Origin: Eledone cirrhosa
Taxonomy: Eukaryota
DNA length: 64,000 bases
Direction of reading: 5' to 3'
NCBI GenBank assembly: GCA_964016885.1
Contig: OZ024745.1
Span: forward strand, 57,164,001 to 57,228,000
The notes under the pieces were generated by a model that was not told the origin of the DNA, did no database searches, and saw only the letters and a list, made by a program, of their open reading frames with translations. A program made the position numbers and the translations under genes. Positions 3,552-55,264 of this stretch are shown here, one piece after another. The first letter of the stretch is position 1, and every line of letters begins with the position of its first letter.

Positions 3552-4142
3552 TATGAGTATATGATAGCTGCCACTGTGTTATAAGGCCTTGATATGTATG
3601 GTTTATTTCTATATTATTTTGTTTCATTTGAATTTATAAATTGTCATTTACTATTCGATATGCTCCATATATATTTACTGTTGTAAAAGAAATATTGATT
3701 AAAGGAAAATATCATTTCACATAGTGTTAATTCCATATAAGTTATATTGGATCACTGCTAATAAAAATAAATTATAAATTAGATTGTATTTTCTTTATTC
3801 TCAATGGATTGCAAAAATACATAAATCATATAATATAATTCTTTGTAACTCAGCGGTTTGTGATCGTAGAGATATTTGGTTACTATTTTTAATTGTCCAC
3901 GATTTCTTTGTATATAAATAATTGTGGTTCAAGTGAATATGTATATATATGTTCATATACATTCATATACATTCATATACATTGGTTATCTCTTTCCCTA
4001 AACCTTTCTTACACCGAAAATACCTTTTGACCAGCCATGACTGAATACGCCGTTTTTTTTTCCTACCCAATTTTGTTTCTATTTTACCCGTTCCTTCCCA
4101 TTACCACTCTTTACTTTTTATTCATCTTCTATTTCTTACTCT

Positions 4143-5180: not shown

Positions 5181-6483
5181 AATTGTGGTTTAAGTGATTG
5201 TAAAAACATAAAATTTGTAGAGGATACAGGGAGCGAAGATCCTGTGAAATAAGTACGGTGTAGTCTATTTGTACAATATTCTGTATATGAAATATATATG
5301 ACGTATGTCTATAGACATGTATATATGAAATATATATGAAATATATATTTCTGTATATGAAATATATATGAAGTATGTCTATATACATACTTCTCTCCAG
5401 CAGGTTCTAAAGTGAGCAGTATTAGTGGTGGCTCGATCAAATCTAACATGACCAATTCTTTGGTAGAAATGCTTAGTCCCCAGAATCAACAACATCTATG
5501 ACATCAATGTTCACTATGAGAACAATAATAATAACAACATCAACAATAAATACATTACCAAAATATTATACAATCTATTATTAAATATACGGAAGTAAGT
5601 AATTGGACGTCTGAATCCTGGGATTACATAGGTTATTTTTGTGTCTAAAAAGACTTGAAAGCAATTTTCGGATGCTAAGTGGGTTCCTTTCTTCTTAATA
5701 ATAAACGTTACCGTATGAGGAAAATGGCACAATTTTTACTTTTTGAAACAGAATAAACGAAAATAATATTTAAACGAAACAAAAAAAGAAAAGAGAAAAT
5801 CGAAACAAAAGAAAAACTACTTCCCTCAGTTTCCGATTAAAATATTTACTAGGAATCAAAGTATTTATTTTTCTCTACAATTTTTTAGTTTGCAAAAATT
5901 TCATTCATTCATTCATTCACTCACTCATTTATTTTCCATTCAATCATTCCAAAGATCTATTTTATGTCTATAACATTATTCGTTTATACTTTTTTTTATA
6001 TTTTCCTCTTATCTTGGCATATTTTCGTAGAGATTGCAGTGATTAAGTAGAATCAGAAATAAACATGTTTTCCTGAGAAATATAAGAAATAAGTACATAC
6101 ATTATTTGAAAGCAAAGGTTTTATCTACAAGATATATTGGAAATACATTCCCCTTTTAGATACATAATCGTTATTAAGATGCTGTAGCATAATTGCTTAA
6201 ATGTAAATATATATTATTCAGTTCAAAGCAATATTGAGGAATTTTCTAAATCAATTAATTGTATGTGTATTTTTCAAAATATTCATCAATAAAATGTTAT
6301 TCTTGTCTGAAGATTTCTGGCATATAAATATAGGTACATAAATAAATAAATGCCACTTTGAATAGCCAATGTGCATTAAATAATAAGAAAAAGAATAAAT
6401 GATGAAGAACATAATAGTGATGATTTTATTAGTAGTAATATTGTAATAATGCTACTACTACTACTTCTACTAATAATAATAAT

Positions 6484-6612
6484 TGTTTCAACCCCGTAAG
6501 GATGAAAGGCAAAATTGACCTCGGCAGGAATTGAACTCAGAGTGTAAAGGGCCGTAACTCTATTCTGCAATTATGGCGTCCGACCTTCTACCGATAGTGC
6601 CAATCCAACGCC
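6484..6612 (-). mobile_element. tRNA-derived Nin/Deu-domain SINE, partial
   Basis: Minus strand has an A-box head, GAGTTCAATTCC B-box and the GCCTTTCATCCTTACGGGGT core. Homologous to the other copies in the window. Confidence 0.85.
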
Positions 6613-6661
6613 ATATAATAATAATAATAATAATAATAATTGTTTGTGTATTACTGGTGCT

Positions 6662-6713
<52 letters not shown>

Positions 6714-7041
6714 TGTTATTTTTTCATTGTTGATAGTGTCTTTGCTTTCTGCCATGCTGGACATTATTTCGTGTACTTTTTTCTTCTGCGCTATATATTC
6801 TTTTAAAGAAATATTGAGTTATGTGTTTGTATTTTAAACATAGAGTTTCCCTTTAAGGCTTTAAAATGGAAGAAAACCGTCCACGTCTCATGAATCCCGG
6901 TCAGGCGAGCCACAAAATAGATTAAAATATCTCAACAAAATACGTTTTAGAAATAATTAAATAAAGAAAAAACATAGATCAGATATACACGAGCCAACAC
7001 ATTCACCCTCAAAGTATAATAATAATTTTATTATTAATAAT

Positions 7042-7226
7042 TGTTTCTACTTTAGGCACAAGGCCAGCAATTACCCAGTGCATTACTGGTACTTTATTTT
7101 ATCGACCCCGTAAGGATGAAAGGCAAAGTCAATCTCAGCGGGATTTGAACTCAGATCGTAAAGGGACGTAACTATGCTGGAAAGCATGGCGTCCGACTCT
7201 CTACCGATACTGCCAATCCACCGCCC
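7042..7226 (-). mobile_element. tRNA-derived Nin/Deu-domain SINE, full length
   Basis: GGGCGGTGGATTGGCAGTATCGG head, GAGTTCAAATCCC B-box, GCCTTTCATCCTTACGGGGTCGATAAAATAAAGTACC core and (ATT)n tail. Confidence 0.92.
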
Positions 7227-12273: not shown

Positions 12274-12976
12274 TCAAGGCGGTTGATTTATCGTAGGAGT
12301 GTCAATCCAGTTACAGATCAGATGCGATTTCAGATGAGGACAGCATCTGAAGATCTCAGTCTTAGAGTTAAGGCAAGCGGAAGTGTCTCTCAAGTTTAGC
12401 AAAATCCTATACTTTTCTGTGGTACACAAAGAACAATTCTTTGTGCCCCTTTGGTACTCCCTCGAATGGTCTAATATAGACCAATCAATAGCGTACGGGA
12501 TATTACTATCCTTGAGATCCCATACCTTACTTGCGAGGGCCGTTGATGTTCGTTTATCTGAGTGTTTAAAAGAAGCGACATGTGAGTAAAATCTGGTTTT
12601 AAACCTGTCCTGGGTCATACCGACATATCGCTCGCTTCTGGCTGGCTGGTTGTTGATAACTGGCGTTATTTTAGCCTCATAAACGACAGATTTTGTGTTA
12701 CATTTACCCTGCAATGGGCATTCATCCGGCTTCCTGCAACTGCATCCTGGATTTATCCTCGTACGGTTTGAACTGGTGATTTTGGATTTCATGGATGGAC
12801 AACAAGAGTAGCTGATCTTAACTACATTCCTATTAAAAATCTTATAATATCTATGAATAGGAGGAAAATGTTTGTCTAATAGTTCAAGGAATTTCCTTCC
12901 TACATTAGTTTTGACATTTAGGGAGAAGGGGGGTGTGAACCAAATAATCTTCCTTTTCCTGTTATTATGGTTAGTT
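12274..12976 (-). CDS. PLE-A thumb, Zn-linker and GIY-YIG endonuclease (3' part of the ORF, +1 frame)
   Basis: Open frame KTNHNNRKRKIIWFTPPFS...ISYSC runs into the 172 aa ORF with CSCR..CPLQGKC, VVY..YVG, FKTRFYSH and CSLC..EK. Confidence 0.92.
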
Positions 12977-14407
12977 TTAGGGGGGGGGAGTAGGTAAATA
13001 AGAAATATTTTCTGTAAAACCGCTGTTCTTAAGGGCTTTATTATAATAAGGGGCGGCTTTATTAAAAATGTCTATAGACGAAGATAAAGTAGAAATCCTA
13101 CGGCTAATGTTAGGAATAAGATTATTAAAAACTATAGGGGGATGGCAAGACTCTTTGTGTATATACCTAAGATTTTCATTAGGTTTATGATAGGGTTTAA
13201 AAGAGGCAGTAAGTAGATCAAGATTAATATCAAGAAAGTTAGCATTAGTAAGGTTCGTATCTATAGTAATTTTAAGGTTAAGATTAGCAAAGGTACTAAT
13301 TAAATCTTTACGGAATTTATCAAGATTATGGCCATTGGTGGTATGAGAAACTGCTAATCCGTCATCACGGTATAAACCGATATTATGGGACGGAAATTTC
13401 TCTTTGAGTGTGTGGAGAAGGAATAATCCTACTAAGTCGCACACATCCGCACTGTCATAAGAACCCATTGCAACATCGAAAGAGTTTTCAGGGTTTGACT
13501 TTTTAACCCAAATATTATCATTAGTAAAAAGTAAAGTTTTTCTGGCATGAAAGATAATGTCCTCTTCTAATTTGGAGATATTAATGAAGGGTCTTGCAAA
13601 ATCTAAGGCTTTAGTTAATAAGGAAACGGTAATAGAAGGGTAAAAATCGACAATATCAAATTGCGTAAATCTACACTTATTTTTACCTTGTATATTATTG
13701 AACCAAGAAATAACAGAGGAAGTATTTAGCCACTGTGAAAGGACAGTGTTAGTTCTAATTTGGAGAATTATTTTTCTTAAGATTTTCTTACTAGCAAGGC
13801 CAACCTCGGATTTAGCCGGGTTAATCAGTCTACAACTAGGTCGATTAGTAAAGTCCAATTTATGGTCTTTAAGGGTAATATATGCTTTACGCTTAGCTAA
13901 GCTTTCAATCCGGTTATCTATTTGTAAAGAACTAGCTAGTTCTTTAGCTTCTTTATTGATAGTATTGTAGTTATTATTATTAGTTAATTGATAATTATTG
14001 GTAATACTATTAGTTAAAAGTTGGTTATACAAATTACTATTAACTTCAAAGAGGTTTTTGGTTTTATCAGAAAGAACGAAAGTGTTTGTAGAATTTCTAA
14101 AATTAGAGATATCGTGAGAAAGTTTAGTTTGAAAATTATTATTGTACTTACGAAATTTGATATCACTAATTAAATTAACGAGGTCTAATTCGAAGTTGGC
14201 CATGTCTTTAATTCTAGGTGGATATTTACGGGATTTAATGTCAAAATTATCTTTAGTATCAGCACTGAATAGTCCATCGTAAACCATTGCCTTCCATCTC
14301 ATTCTTTTAACGACTTGCTCGATTTTATCAATGAGGATTTTGGTGTATGTTGTGTTGGAAGGAGTGGGTATGTTTTTGATAGAATAATCCAAATCATAAA
14401 GGTCCAT
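12977..14407 (-). CDS. PLE-A reverse transcriptase (5' part of a single ORF, stopped after a C9 run)
   Basis: 476 aa ORF with YSIKNIP, FDIVDFYPSI, MGSYDSA, GLYRDDGL and FLDINLDL motifs. Confidence 0.93.
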   Translation of the reverse strand: MDLYDLDYSIKNIPTPSNTTYTKILIDKIEQVVKRMRWKAMVYDGLFSADTKDNFDIKSRKYPPRIKDMANFELDLVNLISDIKFRKYNNNFQTKLSHDISNFRNSTNTFVLSDKTKNLFEVNSNLYNQLLTNSITNNYQLTNNNNYNTINKEAKELASSLQIDNRIESLAKRKAYITLKDHKLDFTNRPSCRLINPAKSEVGLASKKILRKIILQIRTNTVLSQWLNTSSVISWFNNIQGKNKCRFTQFDIVDFYPSITVSLLTKALDFARPFINISKLEEDIIFHARKTLLFTNDNIWVKKSNPENSFDVAMGSYDSADVCDLVGLFLLHTLKEKFPSHNIGLYRDDGLAVSHTTNGHNLDKFRKDLISTFANLNLKITIDTNLTNANFLDINLDLLTASFKPYHKPNENLRYIHKESCHPPIVFNNLIPNISRRISTLSSSIDIFNKAAPYYNKALKNSGFTENISYLPTPPP

Positions 14408-14626
14408 GGTGTATGTTGGTTAAATTCCTGAAAACTGTAGAGTGCTCAACTAATCGGGCTGGAAAGTGCCAATCGTATATGTAATATCGAATATGCTGCG
14501 ATCAATCCCGGTTGGAGCTGTATAAATGAAGTAATTCCATCGGAAAAGTCCAGGAAAAAAGAGTGCTCTATGTAAGCAACAGAGCTTAATTATTATTATT
14601 ATGTAATAAACAACATAAGGCAATTA

Positions 14627-14686: not shown

Positions 14687-14927
14687 AATCCTGGTTTGTT
14701 TATTGAATATGGATTCTAAAAACAAAAATGCAATCTATATGAAAGTGAGGCTGGAAAAGGGAGAAGGAAAGGAAAAATAAAATAAAATAAAACTACACAT
14801 GCAAACACACACAAAAAAACACAAAAGCATACTTACACACACACACATATATACACATATAATTTGCACGCATACACATATACACATACACACATAATCC
14901 CGTAAATATCCACCTAGAATTAAAGAC

Positions 14928-16154
14928 ATGGCCAACTTCGAATTAGACCTCGTTAATTTAATTAGTGATATCAAATTTCGTAAGTACAATAATAATTTTC
15001 AAACTAAACTTTCTCACGATATCTCTAATTTTAGAAATTCTACAAACACTTTCGTTCTTTCTGATAAAACCAAAAACCTCTTTGAAGTTAATAGTAATTT
15101 GTATAACCAACTTTTAACTAATAGTATTACCAATAATTATCAATTAACTAATAATAATAACTACAATACTATCAATAAAGAAGCTAAAGAACTAGCTAGT
15201 TCTTTACAAATAGATAACCGGATTGAAAGCTTAGCTAAGCGTAAAGCATATATTACCCTTAAAGACCATAAATTGGACTTTACTAATCGACCTAGTTGTA
15301 GACTGATTAACCCGGCTAAATCCGAGGTTGGCCTTGCTAGTAAGAAAATCTTAAGAAAAATAATTCTCCAAATTAGAACTAACACTGTCCTTTCACAGTG
15401 GCTAAATACTTCCTCTGTTATTTCTTGGTTCAATAATATACAAGGTAAAAATAAGTGTAGATTTACGCAATTTGATATTGTCGATTTTTACCCTTCTATT
15501 ACCGTTTCCTTATTAACTAAAGCCTTAGATTTTGCAAGACCCTTCATTAATATCTCCAAATTAGAAGAGGACATTATCTTTCATGCCAGAAAAACTTTAC
15601 TTTTTACTAATGATAATATTTGGGTTAAAAAGTCAAACCCTGAAAACTCTTTCGATGTTGCAATGGGTTCTTATGACAGTGCGGATGTGTGCGACTTAGT
15701 AGGATTATTCCTTCTCCACACACTCAAAGAGAAATTTCCGTCCCATAATATCGGTTTATACCGTGATGACGGATTAGCAGTTTCTCATACCACCAATGGC
15801 CATAATCTTGATAAATTCCGTAAAGATTTAATTAGTACCTTTGCTAATCTTAACCTTAAAATTACTATAGATACGAACCTTACTAATGCTAACTTTCTTG
15901 ATATTAATCTTGATCTACTTACTGCCTCTTTTAAACCCTATCATAAACCTAATGAAAATCTTAGGTATATACACAAAGAGTCTTGCCATCCCCCTATAGT
16001 TTTTAATAATCTTATTCCTAACATTAGCCGTAGGATTTCTACTTTATCTTCGTCTATAGACATTTTTAATAAAGCCGCCCCTTATTATAATAAAGCCCTT
16101 AAGAACAGCGGTTTTACAGAAAATATTTCTTATTTACCTACTCCCCCCCCCTAA
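14928..16154 (+). CDS. PLE-A reverse transcriptase, N-terminally truncated copy
   Basis: 408 aa, identical to the C-terminal part of the 476 aa ORF. Confidence 0.9.
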   Translation: MANFELDLVNLISDIKFRKYNNNFQTKLSHDISNFRNSTNTFVLSDKTKNLFEVNSNLYNQLLTNSITNNYQLTNNNNYNTINKEAKELASSLQIDNRIESLAKRKAYITLKDHKLDFTNRPSCRLINPAKSEVGLASKKILRKIILQIRTNTVLSQWLNTSSVISWFNNIQGKNKCRFTQFDIVDFYPSITVSLLTKALDFARPFINISKLEEDIIFHARKTLLFTNDNIWVKKSNPENSFDVAMGSYDSADVCDLVGLFLLHTLKEKFPSHNIGLYRDDGLAVSHTTNGHNLDKFRKDLISTFANLNLKITIDTNLTNANFLDINLDLLTASFKPYHKPNENLRYIHKESCHPPIVFNNLIPNISRRISTLSSSIDIFNKAAPYYNKALKNSGFTENISYLPTPPP

Positions 16155-16857
16155 AACTAACCATAATAACAGGAAAAGGAAGATTATTTGGTTCACACCC
16201 CCCTTCTCCCTAAATGTCAAAACTAATGTAGGAAGGAAATTCCTTGAACTATTAGACAAACATTTTCCTCCTATTCATAGATATTATAAGATTTTTGATA
16301 GGAATGTAGTTAAGATCAGCTACTCTTGTTGTCCATCCATGAAATCCAAAATCACCAGTTCAAACCGTACGAGGATAAATCCAGGATGCAGTTGCAGGAA
16401 GCCGGATGAATGCCCATTGCAGGGTAAATGTAACACAAAATCTGTCGTTTATGAGGCTAAAATAACGCCAGTTATCAACAACCAGCCAGCCAGAAGCGAG
16501 CGATATGTCGGTATGACCCAGGACAGGTTTAAAACCAGATTTTACTCACATGTCGCTTCTTTTAAACACTCAGATAAACGAACATCAACGGCCCTCGCAA
16601 GTAAGGTATGGGATCTCAAGGATAGTAATATCCCGTACTCTATTGATTGGTCTATATTAGACCATTCGAGGGAGTACCAAAGGGGCACAAAGAATTGTTC
16701 TTTGTGTACCACAGAAAAGTATAGGATTTTGCTAAACTTGAGAGACACTTCCGCTTGCCTTAACTCTAAGACTGAGATCTTCAGATGCTGTCCTCATCTG
16801 AAATCGCTTCTGATCTGTAACTGGATTGACACTCCTACGATAAATCAACCGCCTTGA
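16155..16857 (+). CDS. PLE-A thumb and GIY-YIG endonuclease, second copy
   Basis: Same frame relation and motifs as the first copy. Differences are N>D, A>S and H>L. Confidence 0.9.
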
Positions 16858-21389: not shown

Positions 21390-22892
21390 TTAATTAGGTT
21401 TATAATATTTAAATGTTTTTTTTAGTTTATGATTACACGATATAATTAATTCCTGTCTTTTATTTAATAAGATATCCCTAGACTTCATTATTTCAAATAG
21501 TTCTTGGGAACATAATCTACATTCCTTTCTATTATTTTGATAAGGGGTGGCTCTTTTGAGCACACTCCAGGTCAAATCATATTTTATATTTTTATTTTTA
21601 TAACTATTGATTTTTTCTGCTAGAGATGTTGTATTAGCCAGTGCGGCATTTTTAAAGCTATGTTTGTGGGTATTATACCTTGTCTTAAAATTGTTAGAGG
21701 TAGCTCCTATATATGAGCAAATAGAATCTTTAGTTTTAACATTACATTTATAGACTATGTTGTTAACAAGACAATTCCCTTTTAATGGGCAGTTTGTTTT
21801 GTTTCTACAGTTACATCCTTTCGTTAATTCTGTATTTGAGGAGATATTATTGTTAATTTGATGTACTGGTGGTATACTTATGGTTTTCTTACATTTATAT
21901 GCATTATATGCACTTATATTTTGTTTTATGTTATTTGTTGTAGAGTATGAGAATTTAACTGTAGACCTATTTAAGATTTGATGGTATTTGTGGTTTGGCG
22001 GGAAGTTTTTCTCAAGGATATAAAAAAATTTTTTAGCAATATTATCCTTAACTTGTAAATTAAAAGGAGCATTATACCAAGTAACTCGTCTATTACGGTT
22101 TCTATGTTGTTTATTATTTTTATTATTTTTATATGTTGTATCATGATTTTTACTAGGAGGATTAATGTTAATGATCTCACCACAACTATTTTTAGTTATA
22201 TTTGTAGATTTAGGTGTTTTATCTTTTTTATTAGGAGTTTTATTATTAATATTTATTATAGTCGTATGATGAGTAGTTTTTTGAGGGTTACTATACTTTA
22301 TATTAGAAGATTTAGTATTTTGGGGTATACTATGGGTGGCATTTAGGTGTGTACTTTTCATTTGGTGTTTGTTGGTAATATTATGCTGTATGCTTTCAGT
22401 ATTTTTAGTAGAAGGTATATACTCTAATCTATTTTTGTGGCCACTTCTATCTAGAGCTTCATTATAAAAGGTCGCATTTTTATCAAATACATCTTGGTTA
22501 GAAGAAAGGTTAGAAATTCTAAGTGATATATTATATGCAAGGTTTTTAAGGATAGATTTAGGGTGATTAGATTGTGAGTGTATGTAATGTAAGTTTTGGT
22601 TAGGTTTATGGTAAGGTTGGTATATACCCGTAGCTAAATCTAAAGTTATATCTAGGAAATTTACTACTTTACTTGTTTTTTCAAAAGTAATATTAAGATT
22701 ATAATAGTCTTTAAGGAAAGTTCTAATATGCTTTTTGTTTTTTTCGATTTCTGAAAGGCTAAGGTTGTTAGAGAGAAGAAGACAGTCATCACGATATAAA
22801 CCACCTTTGAGGTGGGGAAAAGAGGCATTTATGTTGAAAAGGAGAAAGAGGCCCACAAGATCAGTAATTTGGGCGGAATCGCTTGAACCCAT
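21390..22892 (-). CDS. PLE-B RT (from motif B) and GIY-YIG endonuclease, 5'-truncated
   Basis: MGSSDSA, GLYRDDCL, FLDITLDL, WYNAPF, CNCRNKTNCPLKGNC, IVY..YIG and CRLC motifs. The frame is open upstream to the truncation near 22930. Confidence 0.93.
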   Translation of the reverse strand: MGSSDSAQITDLVGLFLLFNINASFPHLKGGLYRDDCLLLSNNLSLSEIEKNKKHIRTFLKDYYNLNITFEKTSKVVNFLDITLDLATGIYQPYHKPNQNLHYIHSQSNHPKSILKNLAYNISLRISNLSSNQDVFDKNATFYNEALDRSGHKNRLEYIPSTKNTESIQHNITNKHQMKSTHLNATHSIPQNTKSSNIKYSNPQKTTHHTTIININNKTPNKKDKTPKSTNITKNSCGEIININPPSKNHDTTYKNNKNNKQHRNRNRRVTWYNAPFNLQVKDNIAKKFFYILEKNFPPNHKYHQILNRSTVKFSYSTTNNIKQNISAYNAYKCKKTISIPPVHQINNNISSNTELTKGCNCRNKTNCPLKGNCLVNNIVYKCNVKTKDSICSYIGATSNNFKTRYNTHKHSFKNAALANTTSLAEKINSYKNKNIKYDLTWSVLKRATPYQNNRKECRLCSQELFEIMKSRDILLNKRQELIISCNHKLKKTFKYYKPN

Positions 22893-22930
22893 AGTAATAT
22901 CAAAAAGATTACTGTAGGTGTTTCTGGTCT

Positions 22931-26035: not shown

Positions 26036-26249
26036 AATACCTAATAAATTCCTTTTTTAACAAAAGCACTTTCATTTTATATTCATCCTTTCTACATTTC
26101 TCCGGAATATAATTTATACTCGTTTAGCAAACCTGCACGTACGCTGTTCATCTCTAACGTAACGATATATTATCACTACATTATTGATAACCTGAAATTT
26201 TATTAATCTCCTATACAGTTGAGCAACTAATTCAGCATACGCCTCTAAA

Positions 26250-28563
26250 ATGGAAAGGCACCAATTGGATATGTCGTTAAAAAACATACCTATTCAGGCA
26301 AAAAGGGAATATATTCTAGGTATGATACAAAGGACCAATGATTTTATTCGACGAATCAGATGGAAAACATTCCATTTTGACAAAAGCCGTATAAACCAAA
26401 CATCGGATCTTAACAAGGATAAATTTGGATTTAAATCTTACAAGAACCCACCCTCAAACCCACTTTTAGATGCATTTGAACAAGACCTAATGGATATGAT
26501 CATGGATATCAAATTTACAAAACGTAAGAACAATAAACTACAGAATGACATCACGGCACTGCTCAATAATCTAAAAAACGCCAATGGAATTATTGTTAGA
26601 GCAGACAAAACATCAAACGTATATACCATGGATGTGGACACTTACAATAACTTCATCCGTAAGGAATTGCATAAAAAATACAGGAAAACTAATGAAGCCA
26701 CACTTAAAAACATCAACAACTCGGCATGTGATATTGTTAAAAAAACTTTGTATTGACGATAGAACGCAACCCTTAACACCAGCTATACCATCCTTCAACC
26801 TGAAGGACCACAAGGTAAACTTCGATACTAACCCTAATATTAGACTTATATGCCCCTCTAAATCTGATATAGGTAAAATTAGCAAATATATACTAGACAG
26901 AATTATCCCCCAAGTTAAGGTTAAAGTAGAGATTAAACTCATGAAGCAATAAGAAGGTTTAATAACATTACTGATAAAAAAAAATCAAAATTTATTCAGT
27001 TTGATATTGATGAATATTATTCCTCAATTTCACCTGATACTCTACATGAAGCTCTTTCGTTCGCTAAGGATAATTCCGACCTTACGGATGCTGAAATTAA
27101 AATTATTATGGAAGCGAGAAAAACTATAGTTAAATTCGATGATAGCTACTGGGTTCGCAAAGATAGACCTTCTAATTTTGATATCACTATGGGTTCTTAT
27201 TATTCGGCGGAAGTAACAGATCTTGTGGGAATTTATATCACCCACAGATTACAAGGAAAATTCAAGGATCTCCACGGTGGAATTTACCGTGACGATGCGC
27301 TCCTATTAGTTAAGCATATGAATAACCAGAATTTAGAAAGGATGCGTAAAAATATCAGAAAGCTTTTTAAGGAACTAGGATTAAATATTACATTTGAATA
27401 TAACCTCAAAGAGGTCAATTTCCTTGATGTTACTTTCAATCTCAATACAGATACGATTAAACCGTTCCATAAACTAAATGAGAACCTTAAATATGTAAAT
27501 ACGAGTTCTAACCATCCACTCTCTATAATTAAATCCATCCCTAGAAATGTTTCTCTTAGGATCTCTCGCCTATCGTCCAACCAACAAACCTTCAAAGAAC
27601 ATGCCGAGTATTATGATGATGCACTTAGGAAAGCCGGCCACCTAGAAAATATAGAGTATATAGTCAAAGATCACCAAAACACCCAAAATAAATCACATAG
27701 GAGTAGAAATAGCACAGAATCACCACCATACATACACTACCGCAATAGACACAATAATAGTCGCACACCACCAAACAGAAGGGGATGTAAGGAGTATATC
27801 TGGTACAACCCGGTCTATAACAACTCTATTAAAACCAATCTACCCTCAAAATTCTTTCGATTAGTTAGAAAACACTTTCCAACATCACATAAATATAATA
27901 AAATCTTAAACCCTAACACTATTCGACTTTCATATTCAACCGCCCCTAATATTGAACAACATATAAAAAAGCTTAACGCAAAAAGGTTGTATAAACGCCT
28001 TCCAACACATAACAATACACGTAAAACATTAGCTATAACATCACAAAACAACAAACAACATCCTGTCCTACATAAGCAACCTCATCAACCCATCCATGGC
28101 AATACAACAACGCAAAATTATAATTGCAACTGTGTCCACCCAGGAATGTGTCCGTTGAACAATCAGTATCTTGAACGCAACATCGTATACAAATGTACTA
28201 TCGAATCGGATAGACAGAAGTGGTACTATGTGGGATCTACAGCCACCTCCTTCAAATCACGCCTTTATAGACATCGTTATTCGATAAAACATGAAAACCA
28301 GCGTTATGTAACAACACTCGCAGACAAGGCTTGGCAGCTGCGTGAAAATAACCAACAATTTCACCTAAAATGGGATATAATAGCGGCTGCCCCCCCCCCC
28401 CCCCCTATCCCATGGACAGGAATTTTGTAAATTATTTAATGTACAATTATTTTGTATTATGGAATCCAAAAACATTTTATTAAATAACAGAATAGAGCGA
28501 TCGTTATACTGTAACCATCGCTTAAAATCTACATTTTCATATTATAAATACTACCAGGAATGA
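26250..28563 (+). pseudogene. PLE-C RT-GIY-YIG ORF with frameshifts (about 26745, 26940, 28400)
   Basis: MSLKNIPI, FIQFDIDEYY, MGSYYSA, GIYRDDAL, WYNPVY, CNCVHPGMCPL and IVY..YVG motifs spread over successive frames. Confidence 0.92.
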
Positions 28564-48949: not shown

Positions 48950-48989
<40 letters not shown>

Positions 48990-48992
<3 letters not shown>

Positions 48993-49740
48993 GATCAAGG
49001 TCTAGCAAATAGAGAAAAAGTTTTAAAATAAATTTTAAAAAATTCGCTGTACTTACTATATGTGCTTTACCGCGGTTTCATGCTCCAGAATAAACGGAAA
49101 ATCCAAGCAAATTTCTATTGAGAAGGGAGCAATCTTCAGAAGGTTCTTCTCCCTCGGAGAATATAAAATTCCCGAGTTCAAATCAGAAACTGACGCCATC
49201 CCAAATGATAGCGGATGATGAAAGAAATAATTCTGCCTGGTGCCGTGTGCAAAGACAAAAGGCAGGTTGGACAGGTCAATGTCCTGCCACTAGAAATAGC
49301 AGCAGTTCAAACGGCGAAAATGTTATCTCTATCTTAAGGGGAGATCAATAATTATAAAGTAGGAATTCCTACGTGTAAAAGATACATATAGGGACACAAG
49401 TATTATCCAACGGTATGCCAATGTAGTTCTATGGCCGGTTAATAAATTAACAAGCCAGAACATATAAAATCAAGATCTAGCAAATGGAGCCTTCTGACGA
49501 TTGCTCCCTTTTCAATGAAAATCCGCTTGGATTTTTCGTTTATTCTGGAGCATGAAACCGCGGTAAAGGCACATATAGTAAGTACAGCGAATTTTTTAAA
49601 ATTTATTTTAAAACTTTTTCTCTATTTGCTAGACCTTGATTTTATATGTTCTGGCTTGTTAATTTATTAACCCGCATGCGAGTGGATAATACTTGTTTCC
49701 CTATATGTATTTTTTACACGTAGGAATTCATACTTTATTA
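48990..49740. mobile_element. Fold-back cluster of PLE pLTR fragments
   Basis: 48990-49143 inverted versus 49490-49640, and 49352-49480 inverted versus 49620-49740. Confidence 0.8.
49489..49570 (+). ncRNA. Intact hammerhead ribozyme with 53-nt helix II (inverted copy 49063-49143)
   Basis: gcctt-CTGACGA-tTGCTCC...GGAGCAt-GAAA-CCGCGG-TA-aaggc. Confidence 0.88.
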
Positions 49741-50612
49741 TTATTATATATATATAAATATATATATATCACCCTTTGGTCACGATTGACCACTGAATTT
49801 GCATATATATATTGATAAAGTATCATGTTCAGTAGATAATATATAAATAATATTTGTTTCTTCAATTAAAAATACGATAATAAGGCTTTTCTAATGAGCC
49901 GAGTCTATGACTTTCGTCCTTTATCTGACTTATTACCATGTGAAAACATTTTTTGCAGAAGGGTCAATCAAACTGGAATAAACGGATGTTATACATTTCA
50001 TTAAACAGATATGGTTTGTTTTCAGATAGGAGGAATTTAATAAAAGGCATTTCAAATTTGAAGAATTATTTCTATAGTTCTTTCAGTAATCAATGCTTAA
50101 ACATTAATTGAATGAGCAGAGTTAAAACGTGTGGGTTAATACTAACAACGGTTTGATATTGGCGTATGATGCAGATATTTAATATGAAGTAAGATATCAA
50201 ACTTTTAGTTTCATTCCCATGGGTTTAGGGAGCATTTCTGAAGTCAGTGAGGGTACGGGTTCAACTTTGGTCAATTTAGTTGTAGTGAAAAGTTTACTTC
50301 TTCGCATTCTAAAATGGTTAGAAAACTTCGATATGCGATAAACATTGTTGAGCATATTTAAATAGACATGTTTTTCGGTAATTTGGGGTAGTTTGGGGAC
50401 AACAATAAAATTATGGTTGCTGCCCCCAGTTTCACTACCCCTATATATATATGCATAAATTAAAAAAAAATATGTTCTGTATCCTTTCCTCGGGTGTTAA
50501 TATATCGAGCTACTTCGCATTTGGTAAGAAACTGGAATTATACCCAATTTATTCCTATCTCGTATATATATTTACAATTTACATTAGAGTATATATATAT
50601 ATATATATATAT

Positions 50613-50803
50613 GAACCAGTAAGACCCCGACAGCTGAGCTCAAGCCGTTTCGACGGCTAATTCTGAATTATAGAATTAGCCGTCGAAACGGCTTGAGCTC
50701 AGCTGTCGGGGTCTTACTGGTTCCTATTACCCACTCTACTACCCCAAGTATTGAGTACTTTGGTGCGTTATGGTCCACCTGGTTCCTTACCACATTTCCT
50801 TCG

Positions 50804-50838: not shown

Positions 50839-51950
50839 TAAATTAGCGAGAATCGTTTTCAGCTCAGGAATTAACGAAAATCAACGTCTGATATGTGTGG
50901 CAAGCTCAATGAATCATATGAATCAGAGCTACAACATACGTTAAGGGCCAAACACACTGAGATGATGGTTAAACATATCATCCGCACAGCCAAAACAAAA
51001 CGACCAAGTAATTCGGGTCAAACAATAAAAATATATGTGTTGATACTTTCCCGGACTCTGGACTGATGGTAAAATCCAGTATTGGTTTCTGCGTTTCCAA
51101 ATCAGGTACTGTCCGCCTACATAAAGAATGTTGGGCTTCTGGTGAGATGATGAACAAGGAAGTCGTGTTATCAACGGGTTTTGCTCCAAGATGCTATAGA
51201 TAGTGTGGCTATTACTGACCCGTCGTGGGATTCAGCAAGGGAGGTAACACCTCTATTAAGCGAATGATTCAGTTGTGTATTATTGCGAGAATGCAAAATA
51301 TCACAAATCGAATAAAGCTCTCGACAGAATAGTTAAATATAACAGAGCTATTCAACAGTCAATATAAGTAACTGAAAAAATCAATAAAATTAACTGCTCA
51401 ATAGCTAGACTCTGGAGATTAATACAAATATAAATTAGCGAGAATCGTTTTCAGCTCAGGAATTAAGGAAAATATATATATATATATATATAAGTTATAA
51501 GAATATATATATATATATATATATATAAGTTATAAGAATCAAAGTTCTGTTCAAATCATTTATATGCTTACAATTGTTTCCTCCAAACCGAGGTTTGGAT
51601 TCTTCGGAGCAATTTATTAATGAATGATCACATATATGACCTCCTTTTCAACCCAAGAGACATACAGATACATATGCAAATATTGTTGCTTGGTGTGTCG
51701 ACATCCATTATAACGTGGCAGTATACATTTAAAGATTACATTCATATCAAAAGAGGATAAAATTAAAAATTAAAGTTAAAATACAACATGAAATTAATGC
51801 GATAGGATAGTCAGAATCAGTTAGTGTGTGCAATAGTTACACGTGTGGCAAGCACGTGTGTCCTATTTATATAATATTATAGTGCGGCAGGGTATTACAT
51901 GTAATACAAGCACTTTAAGCGGGTAATCAAGAGTATTAAGGGGGTTGTAC

Positions 51951-52008
51951 TGGTAATGTATCTTTTATATGAATCTTCTATAACATTCATATAAAAGATA
52001 CATTACCA
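51951..52008. other. Perfect 24-bp-arm hairpin, candidate parvoviral terminal or origin structure
   Basis: TGGTAATGTATCTTTTATATGAAT-cttctataac-ATTCATATAAAAGATACATTACCA, just upstream of the viral genes. Confidence 0.65.
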
Positions 52009-52180
52009 TTACTTCCACCTCCCTCCCGACTGGCTTGTCTCCCTTCCCAAAAGGGCAGTGCAGAGGGCAGGCAGCTTATCCAATCACATTGAAGATATCA
52101 ATTACAGCGGGAATATTAATGCTAAGTCAGCAATAATTTAAATACGAACACGTAGGCAGAATTAAAAGCATAAAAAACTG

Positions 52181-52188
52181 TATAAATA
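52181..52188 (+). promoter_or_regulatory. Candidate TATA box of the single viral promoter
   Basis: TATAAATA about 95 nt upstream of the first downstream ATG (52278). Confidence 0.5.
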
Positions 52189-52277
52189 TCTAGGCGCGCA
52201 TTTTAAATTACCACAACAGAAATCCACGCCAAAAGAAGAACGTCGATACTTCGCTACTACTCAAGAAGAAAATCATA

Positions 52278-52331
52278 ATGAGTTACGAAGATTTAAAGCT
52301 CCGAGATGCAACAATGTTGGCAGAACTCGCG
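52278..52331 (+). CDS. NS1: Putative NS1 exon 1 (MSYEDLKLRDATMLAELA)
   Basis: ATG plus 18 codons ending at a phase-0 GCG|GTAAGT donor. Joins in frame to the acceptor at 53933. Confidence 0.6.
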
Positions 52332-52341
52332 GTAAGTAATC

Positions 52342-53883
52342 ATGCCTTTACATCTACCATATTATAATTACTGTGGACCATACACAAACAATTACAACAA
52401 CAAACCTATTAATGAATTAGACAACTGCTGCAGAGAACACGACTTAGACTATGACAGAACAGATATAACTATAGAAGAGGCTGACAACAAACTAATCGAG
52501 TGTAGTAAAAAAAGTATCGGCGTTCTTAGTAAGGAATATTATAAGAGGGAAACAAATTGTAATGCCACCGACTGAAAAAAAAGAAAAATAGAACAAGAAC
52601 AATCACACAAAAACCAAGACAGTTGCGAAATATCAGGTCAAGATCTAGTAAACGCGGCAACATCACAAGATAGTGGGATAGTAGAAACACCAGCAATGGG
52701 GGATCCACACATAGGACCATCACCAGGAGGGTCAGCAGCATTAGCACAAGGGGATCAACCACCAGTAATAGGGGATATAAATCGGATAGTCTCAAACAAA
52801 TTCTCCAGAACATTCATACATTACATAAATTGTTCAGATAATCCAATAGACAAAGCATATTACAAAAAACACGATGCAGAATATATACAATTAAACATTA
52901 AAAACATAGAGCAGCTTTAATTCCTTACAGAGTTAAAAGCGAGTATGACAATAGCAGAATTAGAAACATACTTAACACCAGCAAGCAACTTCAGAGTAAA
53001 ATCATGCGGTTACAAAATATCAAACATAATACCACTAACAGACGAATTAGGCACATTACAAAACACTACTACAACAAACACTACATTTAACACTAGACCA
53101 TGGATGATACATTACGTAGATAATAAATACGCATTATTTCCTAACCAAACATGGAATATAGCTCATTTAAATAATAACTGGATACATAACATACCATTAA
53201 CAAGAGAGGAATGTAAACTGGCACCAATCGAAAGCAATAGACTAATTAGAAAAGATTGGTGGCTCTGGCAAGATACCTAAGCTGCAACAGCTACAGATCA
53301 AGAAATGCCAGCAGAAGAAATACTATCATATGTAAACACAGGCGACTTCTAATTCTTATACGCTGGTGATACAGCACAATACACATGGATAAATAGAACA
53401 CCTAGTTGGTTTTCGCTTATGGAGTATTACGCATTCAACACAACTTTCGAACCACCAACAATAAAATTAATTAACCGGTTACCTTCGGAAATAAATACAT
53501 ATTCGGGGGCAAAAAAATCACAATGGGCACCAACAAAAGACGGGACGTGGAGTAGAGATTTAGCAGTTGATAAAACTCAAAAAGAAGAAAATACGGGTAG
53601 ATCACACCTAACTCAATTTACTGTAAATCCTTCAAATCCACCACCAATAGCAACATTAGACTCAGTACCAATATTAGATTCGCAAAATAATCCATCAAAA
53701 ATATCATTTATGATTACGATTACATATTACTCAGAAGTAGATTTCGAATACATGTCGGGTAGTCCTCAAACAATGGGTCGGATGGCTTGGGGTACAGCTA
53801 ACGCAACAATAATGAATTCAGCAAAAACTAACCTATGTAAATGGCCACAAGGTTTACGAAATAACGAGAGTCGGTCGAACTAG
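52342..53883 (+). pseudogene. VP1: Parvoviral capsid gene (VP1 with PLA2; major VP probably from M52696)
   Basis: YNYCGP...NELDNCCREHDLDY PLA2 motif, KRK basic patch, Gly-rich VP start, and IPY..SMT..E..L..FRVKSCGYKI jelly-roll block. Frameshifts near 52560 and 52915, stop at 53278. Confidence 0.9.
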
Positions 53884-53933
53884 ACAAGCACATCGTTAAA
53901 GTAGTATTACAATGTAACCATTTTCCATTTCAG

Positions 53934-55264
53934 AACACGGGTCAAAAATTGTACATGTGCATCTATCCGTGGATAGAAAGCAACGACTTCTATTGGCAAG
54001 AAGGAGCAGGTCCGATAAAACATTTCGAATTAAATATTAATGAACATAACGATGATGAAAGCAGAAAAAACACGTACCAGATAAGCAGCAACTATAAAAT
54101 CAAAGACTTCATTCACTGTATATATCACAGTAATATATCACCACAAAAACAACACATTATGCGCCAAAAAAGAGTGGAACGCCTTTAACCACTTTCATAT
54201 CATATGGCACAGTATGCAGAGACCAGGCGAGAATCAACGTTTGAAATATATTCGAAGCTTATATAAAAAGGCCACAAAATTAATACGATACATCCCAGAA
54301 TGTCAGCGAATCAAGTTTCCTAGCAGTATGGCAAACTACTTCTGCCAACCTCCTCGTTATCTCTTAATCCAAGGAATAGACGATACAAACGAAACCTTTT
54401 CAGATTGGTGCATGCAGGAGTATATAACAAAGCCAGACGCACAACCGAAACCATCTACCAGCAGACAACAAACTACACCAAATGAAGAATCAACATTCAA
54501 GTCAAAATCTGGAACGACTTTAACATTATTTAACTACCTAACATATATATTTACATCAAAGAAGTTGCGAAGTGAACAAGACATGAAATCTCACTGGCTA
54601 CATCGAACAAACAACAACCTCATCGGCGCCATATCACATCCTATGTACGACAGCGTAATGAAAAAGGTATTAGAATGCGAGAAGTTGAAAACATTAAATA
54701 TGTTGTTCCAGGACAAATTCGAGAATATGAACTGGGAATTCTTTGATAACAATAAAAACTAGATGGACAGAGATGTATCTCTAAAAATTTTTAAATCCAT
54801 TATCATGACACAAAATTTACCAGAAGCAACATTTGTCACTACAATATGGCAGCTGCTACCCCCCCCCCCCCCCCGCAAAAAAAATAAAAAGAAATTTACT
54901 CGTACTAAGAGGAATACCAAATACCGGTAAATCTATGGTTGCCAGAAGTATTGATATGTTTACGCACGTATCAACAATACAGGGTACAAGCAGCTTTCTT
55001 TTTCAGAATCTCATCAACGTAGAAATTGGTTTAATAGAAGAACCTAATTTTACTTTAGAAACTCTGCAAACATTAAAAAAACTGGCGAAAGGAGTTGATA
55101 CCGAGGTAGCAATTAAGTTTAAACAAGACCAAATTGTTCATAGGACACCGCTAATAATTACAAGCAACAACAACTTCGACCAGAACGCACGACTATCAGA
55201 AAAAATAGCATTTATAGCATTTATCACACGATACACAGAATATATGGCTAATGGTGAACTCTAA
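53934..55264 (+). pseudogene. NS1: Parvoviral NS1 body (HUH endonuclease and SF3 helicase)
   Basis: HFHIIWH at about 54190, NYF motif, Walker A GIPNTGKS, Walker B IEEP and motif C IITSN. Frameshift near 54160, stop at 54760, frameshift in poly-C near 54865. Confidence 0.92.

Follow-up and report, generated by a model that had tools for sequence, protein, structure and literature searches.

The locus analysed here raises the question of whether a parvovirus can carry its capsid gene inside an intron of its replicase gene. Within the window, the 64,000 nt stretch of Eledone cirrhosa DNA that was analysed, positions 52011–55243 (approximately) are, from their similarity to related copies, a decayed, 3′-truncated endogenous copy of a parvovirus. 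Its parts follow one another in the order TATA box, 18-codon exon, GTAAGT, capsid gene (VP), acceptor and body of the replicase gene (NS1), and in this capsid-first lineage the VP gene appears to lie within the NS1 intron. We put at about 85 per cent the probability of the explanation as a whole, namely that a linear parvovirus of approximately 3.9 kb, with hairpins at its ends, left this element in the germ line as a fossil, that VP was nested in the NS1 intron and that a single promoter gave both spliced and intron-retaining RNA. The features of the element are the following.

52011..52066, + strand: what is left of the terminal palindrome on that side (just the inner arm of the stem, loop lost), at the left edge of the insert
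52181..52186, + strand: predicted TATA box (TATAAA), the inferred single promoter
52278..52331, + strand: NS1 exon 1, 18 codons, from codon constraint across copies
52332..52337, + strand: predicted splice donor GTAAGT, phase 0, from its conservation
52332..53933, + strand: predicted NS1 intron of 1,602 nt enclosing the whole VP gene, from donor and acceptor conservation and phase
52342..53899, + strand: VP capsid gene with N-terminal PLA2 domain, broken, from PF08398, relatives and a structure model
53900..53933, + strand: 34-nt spacer with branch-like TAAC, pyrimidine tract and CAG acceptor, from acceptor conservation
53934..55243, + strand: NS1 exon 2 (putative HUH endonuclease, SF3 helicase), interrupted by frameshifts and a stop and 3′-truncated, from PF01057
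54190..54198, + strand: H-F-H sequence taken as the HUH motif of the putative NS1 nuclease, read from the translation
54878..55174, + strand: SF3 helicase core (Walker A, Walker B and motif C), from PF01057

All the signals named in the original prediction were found where it had placed them: TATAAA at 52181, an ATG at 52278 whose 18 codons run to 52331, GTAAGT at 52332, the VP ATG at 52342, and an acceptor composed of TGTAAC, a pyrimidine tract and a CAG whose last base is 53933. From 53934 onward the reading frame is open, and its phase 0 matches exon 1, as required for the in-frame junction 52331/53934 that had been claimed. The claim that no AATAAA separates VP from NS also holds (none within 53490–54751; an ATTAAA at 54029 lies inside NS), and there is no hairpin between the two genes, the terminal hairpins being on the outer side of VP and the outer side of NS. 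The end of VP had to be revised: the TAG at 53881–83, given as the VP stop, is not the natural end, the stop of the relatives matching TAA 53897–99 in another frame, and the spacer to the acceptor is 34 nt rather than 50 nt. The NS1 body had been described as lying past one frameshift; it is frameshifted, but at least twice, near 54118–54126 and near 54858, and it contains a stop at 54760–62. The VP frame is broken near 53857 and has four internal stops (52573, 52918, 53278 and 53350) that had not been mentioned before. Similarity to all relatives ceases near 55243, the truncation point of this copy, and the host DNA leading up to 52010 belongs to a high-copy repeat (depth of some 10^4 versus 10^1–10^2, in three runs consisting of contigs of one sample from one study).

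Pfam profiles recognized two of the seven coding pieces of the window, PLA2 at the start of VP and Parvo_NS1 in the last NS piece; the five others had no match. The PLA2 domain (PF08398, E 1e-13, VP residues 2–57) was also detected in the VP of copy L038 and is present in lineage A, the lineage to which the window copy belongs. The VP pieces of relatives are 58–92% identical. Among solved structures, the best sequence match of a relative's VP is the capsid of Penaeus monodon metallodensovirus (PmMDV; 6wh3, E 5e-8 over 57 residues). A structure model of that VP (mean pLDDT 59) is closest to 9nek (Z 16.5, rmsd 3.7, 243 aligned), although the first four rows of the comparison lie within 1 Z unit and are tied; its top 20 structural matches are all parvovirus capsids (Z 9.7–16.5, the next row 6.4), and Foldseek matched it to parvovirus capsids with E 1e-10. 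Judged by this model, VP is a jelly-roll capsid protein of the parvovirus type. An Octopus vulgaris protein annotated as ‘capsid’ (CAI9722213.1, P0007) is 37% identical over 99% of VP, and is probably part of a related endogenous element because it is encoded on a chromosome-size record.

The NS sequence has 43 matches in its own genome. In the last NS piece of the window, PF01057 (Parvo_NS1) matches residues 24–122 with E 1e-10, and it scores above the curated cut-off in the window, in L038 and in the metagenome contig L066. The family profile of NS matches AAV Rep40/68 (E 8e-19) as well as parvovirus NS1 structures. No Pfam or structure-profile match covered the nuclease domain. The H-F-H at 54190..54198, which we take to be the HUH motif, is kept in all seven rows of alignment A1 that cover the site, with a conserved Tyr downstream.

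The gene order was compared among the copies in the same genome. In 20 of the 22 loci that contain both lineage-A genes, the window included, the two share a strand and VP is the 5′ gene; 15 of these 20 also carry exon 1. Two loci are mixtures of fragments: L050 has NS followed by a C-terminal fragment of VP, and in L055 the start of exon 1 and VP is preceded, at a distance of 1.6 kb, by an NS tail. Locus L058 gave no coding match. Copies that are only about 60% identical in protein and have unrelated flanks nevertheless have a common order, and copies 99.8–99.9% identical sit on different contigs. Copies occur in clusters on C12, C25 and C841. Many copies are rearranged by deletions, inverted duplications or the nesting of lineage A in lineage B.

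The termini are found at the outer ends of the same unit. A left palindrome stands about 300–350 nt before exon 1, its loop in the flip orientation in seven copies and in flop in five; in four separate insertions (L031, L047, L051 and L032), similarity to the window begins at 52011–52015, a sequence that forms the inner hairpin arm in L043, L054, L041 and L039. The right hairpin follows an AATAAA, about 200 nt past the NS stop. Inverted duplications, head-to-head and tail-to-tail, are centred on the two ends (L039, axis 3623; L038, axis 2491). The left and right ends share only a core of 19–23 nt (19 nt in L038), found in two of the 11 right ends compared. The unit measures about 3.9 kb (3,911 nt in L038). 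A genome in the range of approximately 4–6 kb with terminal hairpins, as is characteristic of Parvoviridae, is what the relatives contain by the folding of their ends; of these hairpins the window copy has retained just the inner arm at the left. On the evidence of these copies, the VP-first layout is the virus's own.

Exon 1 comprises 18 codons in 21 of 21 copies (16 of them distinct), with the ATG lost in one. Its frame contains no stops and has a pN/pS of 0.33, against 0.60–1.56 and 7–27 stops in the five other frames, these values being uncorrected pairwise proportions among related sequences; by this comparison exon 1 is demonstrably under selection. The donor GT[AG]AGT is intact in 19 of the 21 copies, the other two having a single-base change of G, and it occurs once in the whole 3.9-kb unit of L038, directly after codon 18. 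At the other side of the predicted intron, YAG stands in phase exactly seven codons (21 nt) before a Met of the NS body in 17 of 18 copies; an AG at this distance precedes four of the 47 ATGs of the window element, a background against which the copies, being related, do not count as independent trials. The spacer drifts in length (33, 34, 38 or 39 nt) while the distance from acceptor to Met is fixed, and pyrimidines make up 70% of the 15 nt before YAG, compared with 43% in the element.

The seven codons between the acceptor and this first Met show codon periodicity (entropy 0.9/0.6/1.62; the control ‘before AG’ consists of unaligned columns and is weak), and in 13 of 14 copies the frame has no Met before them. 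Coding constraint on codons that no upstream Met can reach argues that an upstream exon is needed. In most copies shown, a TATA-like box precedes exon 1 by about 90–100 nt; no other TATA[AT]A[AG] occurs within the first 3.7 kb of the unit in L038. Relatives keep the VP-then-NS order, the short exon and both splice sites, in place of the ordinary order or the unconserved exon and splice sites that would have spoken against the original prediction at the level of DNA.

A related design was found outside the host genome. L066 is a metagenome contig of 4,693 nt with a hairpin or palindrome at both ends and no host flank, and its NS is 28% identical to that of lineage A. It has an exon at 418–473 (18 codons plus 2 nt, phase 2), the donor GTAAGC at the matching place, a VP ATG at 483, a VP stop at 2484–86 and an acceptor TTTCAG at 2492, also in phase 2. 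No TATA box was found before its exon 1. The NS frame shifts near 3726–3837, and its first Met is residue 177, beyond the HUH motif. The left open reading frame matches the VP profile (350 columns, probability 95.8, E 8e-9); it gave no Pfam match and no PDB sequence match, its single-sequence model has a pLDDT of 32.5, and the ESM Atlas clusters of parvovirus-type capsids to which it was assigned (0.94–0.95) were accompanied by smacovirus and anellovirus clusters, which makes this a lead only. From the arrangement of its frames and splice sites, L066 is a divergent, free-standing repetition of the nested design in a different splice phase. The order, the termini, the conservation of exon 1 and of the splice sites, and L066 together support the one-promoter, spliced-NS1 reading first proposed for the window.

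Of the five metagenome loci returned, L066 to L070, three were read: L066 is the one with the nested layout, and L067 and L070 have NS-then-VP and ambisense layouts and are densovirus-like. Searches of viral contigs with lineage-A NS, alignment A1, P0030, L066 NS or P0193 gave no relative, nor did a search of genome contigs. A further search of viral contigs returned five loci at 23–32% identity (L071–L075), of which L072 was read; its open reading frames read as those of a papillomavirus and it was rejected. The first residues of P0174 and P0193 are acceptor-like, and P0026 begins downstream of the nuclease domain found in its cluster mate P0177; these observations are suggestive only. The SF3 tree (FastTree; 137 of 172 sequences, 35 lacking a full Walker A region having been dropped; 192 columns) does not group lineage A with L066 and has a weak, unresolved backbone, so the design common to the two may be ancient or have arisen by convergence. 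The clade of the densovirus-like L067 and L070, a label taken from their layout, does not include lineage A in this tree, which has unnamed tips and the weak backbone just mentioned. Among 30 proteins looked up by cluster, names were obtained only for P0033 and the cluster of P0007, which gives no placement in a subfamily.

The same genome contains a second VP-first lineage, lineage B, without nesting. Its NS begins at a separate ATG, a TATA box lies near the VP stop, and NS appears to be driven by its own promoter and start. By eye, no exon 1 or donor was seen before lineage-B VP in the printed 5′ regions, and right termini were not found in the four loci folded.

For lineage A, the genome order would be left hairpin, one promoter, NS1 exon 1, VP, acceptor, NS1 exon 2, poly(A) signal and right hairpin. 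Removal of the 1.6-kb intron from a single pre-mRNA would join exon 1 to the HUH–SF3 body and give NS1, a step well supported by the conserved sites and their phase. In intron-retaining RNA, exon 1 would become an upstream frame of 28–29 codons, and VP would be made by leaky scanning past two to three AUGs. In L066 a gap of 5 nt separates the end of the exon-1 frame from the VP ATG, a spacing that suits re-initiation, here after a 19-codon upstream frame, better than leaky scanning. This account of VP synthesis is moderately supported by the positions of the frames. We hypothesize that the choice between splicing and retention would set the ratio of replicase to capsid, with RNA probably spliced early and retained late. 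Several observations count against the model: translation from the conserved Met seven codons past the acceptor could yield nearly all of NS1 with no need of exon 1, VP is reached only past an AUG with A at −3, the loci L050 and L055 do not show VP followed by NS, and L066 has a shifted NS frame and no TATA box that was found before exon 1.

That Met, together with the apparent behaviour of lineage B, is also what favours an NS1 expressed from its own promoter in the 3′ end of VP, exon 1 then being a small regulatory upstream frame or accessory peptide of a virus that is truly VP-first. We regard this as very unlikely, given the constraint on the seven codons before the Met, a donor/acceptor phase that stays fixed while the spacer drifts by non-multiples of three, the lack of any Met before the HUH motif in L066, and the absence of a second TATA[AT]A[AG] from the coding region of L038. 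It is still harder to credit that the order arose on or after integration, from a permuted head-to-tail concatemer or circle of an ordinary NS–VP parvovirus that was then copied round the host genome. The frequent rearrangements and the NS-then-VP fragments of L050 are of the kind this would produce, but the 33–39 nt between VP and NS contain no terminal sequence, hairpins occupy both outer ends of the unit, diverged copies with unrelated flanks keep the order, and L066 has it without host DNA. By these sequence comparisons, such a permutation is already contradicted.

The nesting may be right and VP nevertheless come from a separate RNA, one that either begins at another start site past the exon-1 ATG or receives its poly(A) tail directly behind the VP stop. 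Leaky scanning past two to three AUGs is demanding, and seven of 10 copies have A[AT]TAAA no more than 200 nt past the acceptor. These hexamers have no conserved position, and the strand is rich in A (the L038 unit alone has 10 AATAAA). A search for a poly(A) signal conserved at the VP end found none, and the aligned copies have no conserved TATA inside exon 1; we consider a separate VP RNA possible, with the odds against it. It would alter only the production of VP and is compatible with the nested layout. A different doubt is whether a layout that is itself real has been reported before, in a paper or an ICTV proposal, as the many unclassified Parvoviridae sp. records in GenBank, one of them a distant match, might suggest. 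In the open literature, beyond which lie subscription journals and ICTV proposals, we found no paper describing a VP-first layout with VP nested in NS1, in agreement with the original prediction. A 2024 review puts NS on the left in all parvoviruses (PMC11357303), and the genome types given in a 2026 paper are limited to monosense, ambisense and bipartite (PMC13426907). An earlier description seems rather unlikely.

Parvoviruses generally have genomes of approximately 4 kb with terminal hairpins, an NS1 with HUH and SF3 domains and a jelly-roll VP with an N-terminal PLA2 that is common but not universal, and reach their frames by splicing or leaky scanning (PMC6537627); the genomes described have NS first or are ambisense, according to the review (PMC11357303). 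The nested design shares the size class, the hairpins, the SF3 and putative HUH domains of NS1, the VP domains and the predicted use of splicing or leaky scanning, but VP would be transcribed before the NS1 body, between two NS1 exons. The NS-left/VP-right or ambisense plan, which is a description in reviews and not a formal criterion of the family, is absent here, VP adjoining the left hairpin. PmMDV (Metallovirinae), which has an aquatic invertebrate host, gives the best VP sequence match, but is not the closest in fold (Z 11.2). It is not known to carry PLA2, and its NS lies to the left of its VP. A review describes for PmMDV an unusual organization and transcription strategy and a homotelomeric genome with 416-nt ITRs. 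Such long identical ITRs are absent here, the ends differing apart from the short core.

The best match of the VP model, 9nek, tied with the other three leading rows, belongs to Hamavirinae (chapparvoviruses; Syngnathus scovelli chapparvovirus). Mouse kidney parvovirus has one promoter and large introns (PMC6631224), and hamaviruses are without PLA2 (PMC9896142). In chapparvoviruses the order is NS–NP–VP and a large intron removes NS to reach VP, whereas here the intron would remove VP to reach NS. The order is thus reversed relative to Hamavirinae, and PLA2 is present in lineage A. Simple retroviruses express gag-pol from unspliced and env from spliced RNA, and anelloviruses have ORF1 largely inside an intron of ORF2/2 and ORF2/3. 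In these unrelated groups, too, retention gives the capsid and splicing another protein, a working analogy only. The lineage of Swazi bat-associated megaparvovirus is described as atypical, with open reading frames and a splice donor upstream of NS1 and endogenous copies in invertebrates (PMC13426907). There, the upstream frames encode a PLA2 protein and an unknown protein, and the capsid gene still follows NS1.

Taken jointly, it is on balance probable that these elements represent an undescribed, probably subfamily-level, capsid-first group of aquatic-invertebrate parvoviruses, in which at least two deep branches (lineage A and L066) splice out the entire capsid gene to make the replicase and use retention as a replicase-to-capsid switch; lineage B would be an un-nested sister or intermediate, and the copies 99.8–99.9% identical would record recent germ-line invasions. 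Such a group would overturn the NS-first rule that reviews repeat for parvoviruses, and would add a genome plan in which one splice decision picks replicase or capsid. Gene callers blind to splicing would be predicted to clip NS1 in genomes of this kind. The copies point to a parvovirus family, associated with molluscs as inferred hosts, that entered the germ line many times, and with two VP-first lineages in one genome a phylogeny could test how the nesting arose.

The window element is a decayed parvovirus. Its parts, as read from the sequence, are as follows.

52011 to ~55243, + strand: endogenous parvovirus insert
52181, + strand: TATA box
52278-52331, + strand: exon 1 of the replication gene (NS1), 18 codons
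directly 3' of exon 1, + strand: donor GTAAGT, with the start of the capsid gene (VP) 10 nt on
53933, + strand: CAG, preceded by a branch-like TAAC and a pyrimidine tract and followed by the NS1 body

The TATA box, exon 1, donor, VP ATG, branch-like and acceptor signals and NS body were all recovered at the positions originally predicted. Pfam matched two of seven pieces: a PLA2 domain where VP begins and Parvo_NS1 in the final piece of NS. Four internal stops interrupt VP, whose frame also breaks near 53857; judging from relatives, VP would naturally end at the counterpart of 53897-99, which leaves 34 nt of spacer before the acceptor, in place of the stop at 53883 and 50-nt spacer first proposed. 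The NS body, expected to be readable past one frameshift, is present, but its frame breaks near 54118-54126 and again near 54858, with a stop at 54760-62, and it terminates near 55243 without C-terminus or right end. A high-copy host repeat lies to the left of the insert and a ~70-bp tandem repeat to the right; a host hairpin (51950-52010) abuts the left junction. Other host inverted repeats occur at 50609-50727 (a 56-bp near-perfect hairpin) and 48988-49745 (nested, 56-82 bp). Four long open frames, at 12277-14419 (-) and 14898-16854 (+), which are mutual inverted copies, 21393-22928 (-) and 26223-28427 (+), resemble those of Penelope-type retroelements; none of the four gave a meaningful Pfam match.

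The 3.0-Gb genome of Eledone cirrhosa contains 43 matches to the helicase piece and 23 to exon 1 and the VP start, figures that count matches and not copies. In 45 stretches of 9.9 kb, taken from the best matches only, VP lies 5' of NS on one strand in 20 of the 22 loci with both genes of this lineage (lineage A, window included), and 15 of these 20 also keep exon 1. The exceptions, both among mixed fragments, are L050 (NS, then a C-terminal VP fragment) and L055 (exon 1 and the VP start, with an NS tail 1.6 kb upstream of them). Identity ranges from ~60% (protein) up to 99.8-99.9% (DNA), the latter among L038, L041 and L054, located on different contigs, which suggests that insertions span old and recent events. 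An Octopus vulgaris 'capsid' protein is 37% identical to VP. Viral fragments are clustered on contigs C12, C25 and C841, possibly piRNA-cluster-like regions. On C12, lineage-A copies lie inside or beside elements of a second, divergent lineage (lineage B) and are flanked by direct duplications of 130-370 nt (L035:2112-2481 and 6297-6659; L036:2973-3127 and 6906-7149). Within one endogenous copy, an ~80-bp VP piece is tandemly amplified ~12 times (L042:5837-7411).

Relatives also keep exon 1 and both splice sites. Because the copies are related, the following counts measure conservation and are not independent trials: exon 1 keeps its length of 18 codons in all 21 copies (16 of them distinct; ATG lost in one), the donor reads GT[AG]AGT in 19 of 21, and 17 of 18 copies have a YAG exactly seven codons upstream of the NS-body Met (background 4 of 47), the exception, L062, being too decayed. 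The exon-1 frame has a pN/pS of 0.33 and no stops; the remaining five frames score 0.60-1.56 and contain 7-27 stops. Unspliced, the exon-1 frame invariably terminates after 28-29 codons. The VP ATG lies at +7 or +10 in 19 of 21 copies. The distance from VP stop to YAG varies (33, 34, 38 or 39 nt). Variation in the seven post-acceptor codons falls mainly on third positions (0.9, 0.6 and 1.62 bits), and in 13 of 14 copies no in-frame Met lies upstream of them.

Similarity to the window begins at 52011-52015 in four separate insertions, and in relatives this left edge forms one arm, the inner one, of a palindrome ~300-350 nt 5' of exon 1. Among 18 left ends compared, the loop is in flip in L038, both L041 copies, L043, L047, L051 and L054 and in flop in L033, L035, L039, L053 and L056; rolling-hairpin replication yields such flip and flop forms. 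L039 is a head-to-head inverted duplication centred on one genome end, and L038 a tail-to-tail one centred on the other. In relatives the NS stop is followed by AATAAA and a right hairpin, and a short core is common to both ends. As originally noted, no hairpin separates VP from NS; hairpins were found only outside the genes, and a permuted concatemer is therefore rejected as the source of the gene order. The motif T[AT]AGC[GC]GA[TA], which NS1 may nick or bind, recurs in the left and right hairpin loops of lineage A and at the lineage-B left end in L035. It is present at the termini of L033, L035, L038, L039, L040, L041, L043, L047, L053, L054, L056 and L065 and was not found in L051, L060, L066 or L036. 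In L033, L035, L040, L051 and L065 a small perfect GC-rich hairpin, with a T run after it, lies ~90-150 nt past the NS stop, between the poly(A) signal and the right terminus.

By its termini, helicase and capsid, lineage A is a parvovirus, with no subfamily assigned. The NS profile matches AAV Rep and NS1 structures, and nearly all of the closest NS relatives in protein collections are unnamed. A relative's VP matched the capsid of Penaeus monodon metallodensovirus in a sequence search, and its model (pLDDT 59) matches parvovirus capsids, best that of the Syngnathus scovelli chapparvovirus. The metallodensovirus has NS on the left and VP on the right, and is not known to carry PLA2. In an SF3 tree of 137 sequences and 192 columns, whose backbone is weak, lineage A and its closer relatives form a 20-member clade (support 0.99), the metagenome contig L066 falls within a 10-member clade (0.94), and lineage B stands apart from both.

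A scan of metagenome contigs gave five loci (L066 to L070), of which L066, L067 and L070 were compared for layout. L066 (JAAUYG010294627.1, 4,693 nt; NS 28% identical) ends in a palindrome on either side and carries no flanking host DNA; we infer an exogenous virus. Its order is an ATG at 418, 18 codons plus 2 nt, GTAAGC, a VP ATG at 483, a 667-codon VP ORF to 2486, a TTTCAG acceptor at 2492 and the NS body. The left ORF aligns to the VP profile across 350 columns, and the first Met of the NS frame is residue 177, beyond the HUH motif. Donor and acceptor are both in phase 2; since the phase differs from that of lineage A and the two sites still fit, the layout is unlike a chance arrangement. 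No TATA box was found before the L066 exon, and the NS frame shifts near 3726-3837, just past the helicase domain, through assembly error or in reality. The more distant L067 and L070 have a conventional layout. Database proteins of the L066 clade (P0174, P0193, P0026/P0176) either open with residues resembling an acceptor or have their start beyond the nuclease domain, the pattern expected if an upstream exon were needed there too.

Lineage B (NS ~25% identical to lineage A; 24 VP matches in the Eledone cirrhosa genome) has VP then NS on one strand in at least nine loci: L035/L036 (L035:97-2140 with L036:8361-9899), L053, L055, L059, L060 (3227-6789), L076, L077, L081 and L084. Its VP carries PLA2, and in L060 a left hairpin lies 5' of VP. 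Most junctions compared give NS an ATG of its own, L055, L059 and L084 have a TATA box after the VP stop, and no exon 1 was seen in the loci compared; VP-first order is thus wider than nesting. Because lineage B shows that such a design is workable, expression of lineage-A NS1 from a promoter of its own, instead of by splicing, keeps some weight. The lineage-A unit is ~3,911 nt (L038), and its first 3.7 kb hold one GT[AG]AGT and one TATA[AT]A[AG]. Comparative DNA (gene order, conservation of exon 1 and splice sites, L066) supports the predicted splicing, and we put the probability that VP is nested within a predicted NS1 intron at about 0.85.

Searches of the open literature turned up no account of such a genome plan in PMC6537627 or in passages of PMC11357303, PMC13426907, PMC9896142, PMC10267136, PMC6631224 and PMC5013282, although supplements and genome maps may show such an order uncommented. 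PMC11357303 places NS on the left in all parvoviruses, and PMC5013282 reports that sequences from molluscs related to parvoviruses fall outside the known genera. We somewhat favour the view that the nested design also marks a wider, undescribed clade.

Most likely, one promoter would give one pre-mRNA; removal of 1.6 kb from it would yield NS1, and an RNA that keeps this stretch would yield VP, with a small reading frame ahead of it. In lineage A this frame overlaps the VP start and two to three AUGs precede VP, so leaky scanning would be required; the L066 frame ends 5 nt short of the VP ATG, an arrangement suited to re-initiation. No conserved poly(A) signal was found at the VP end in lineage-A copies. 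Retroviruses and anelloviruses have single-promoter designs with a structural gene in an intron, whose retention gives the capsid. In the nested parvoviruses, splicing early and retention late might act as a switch.
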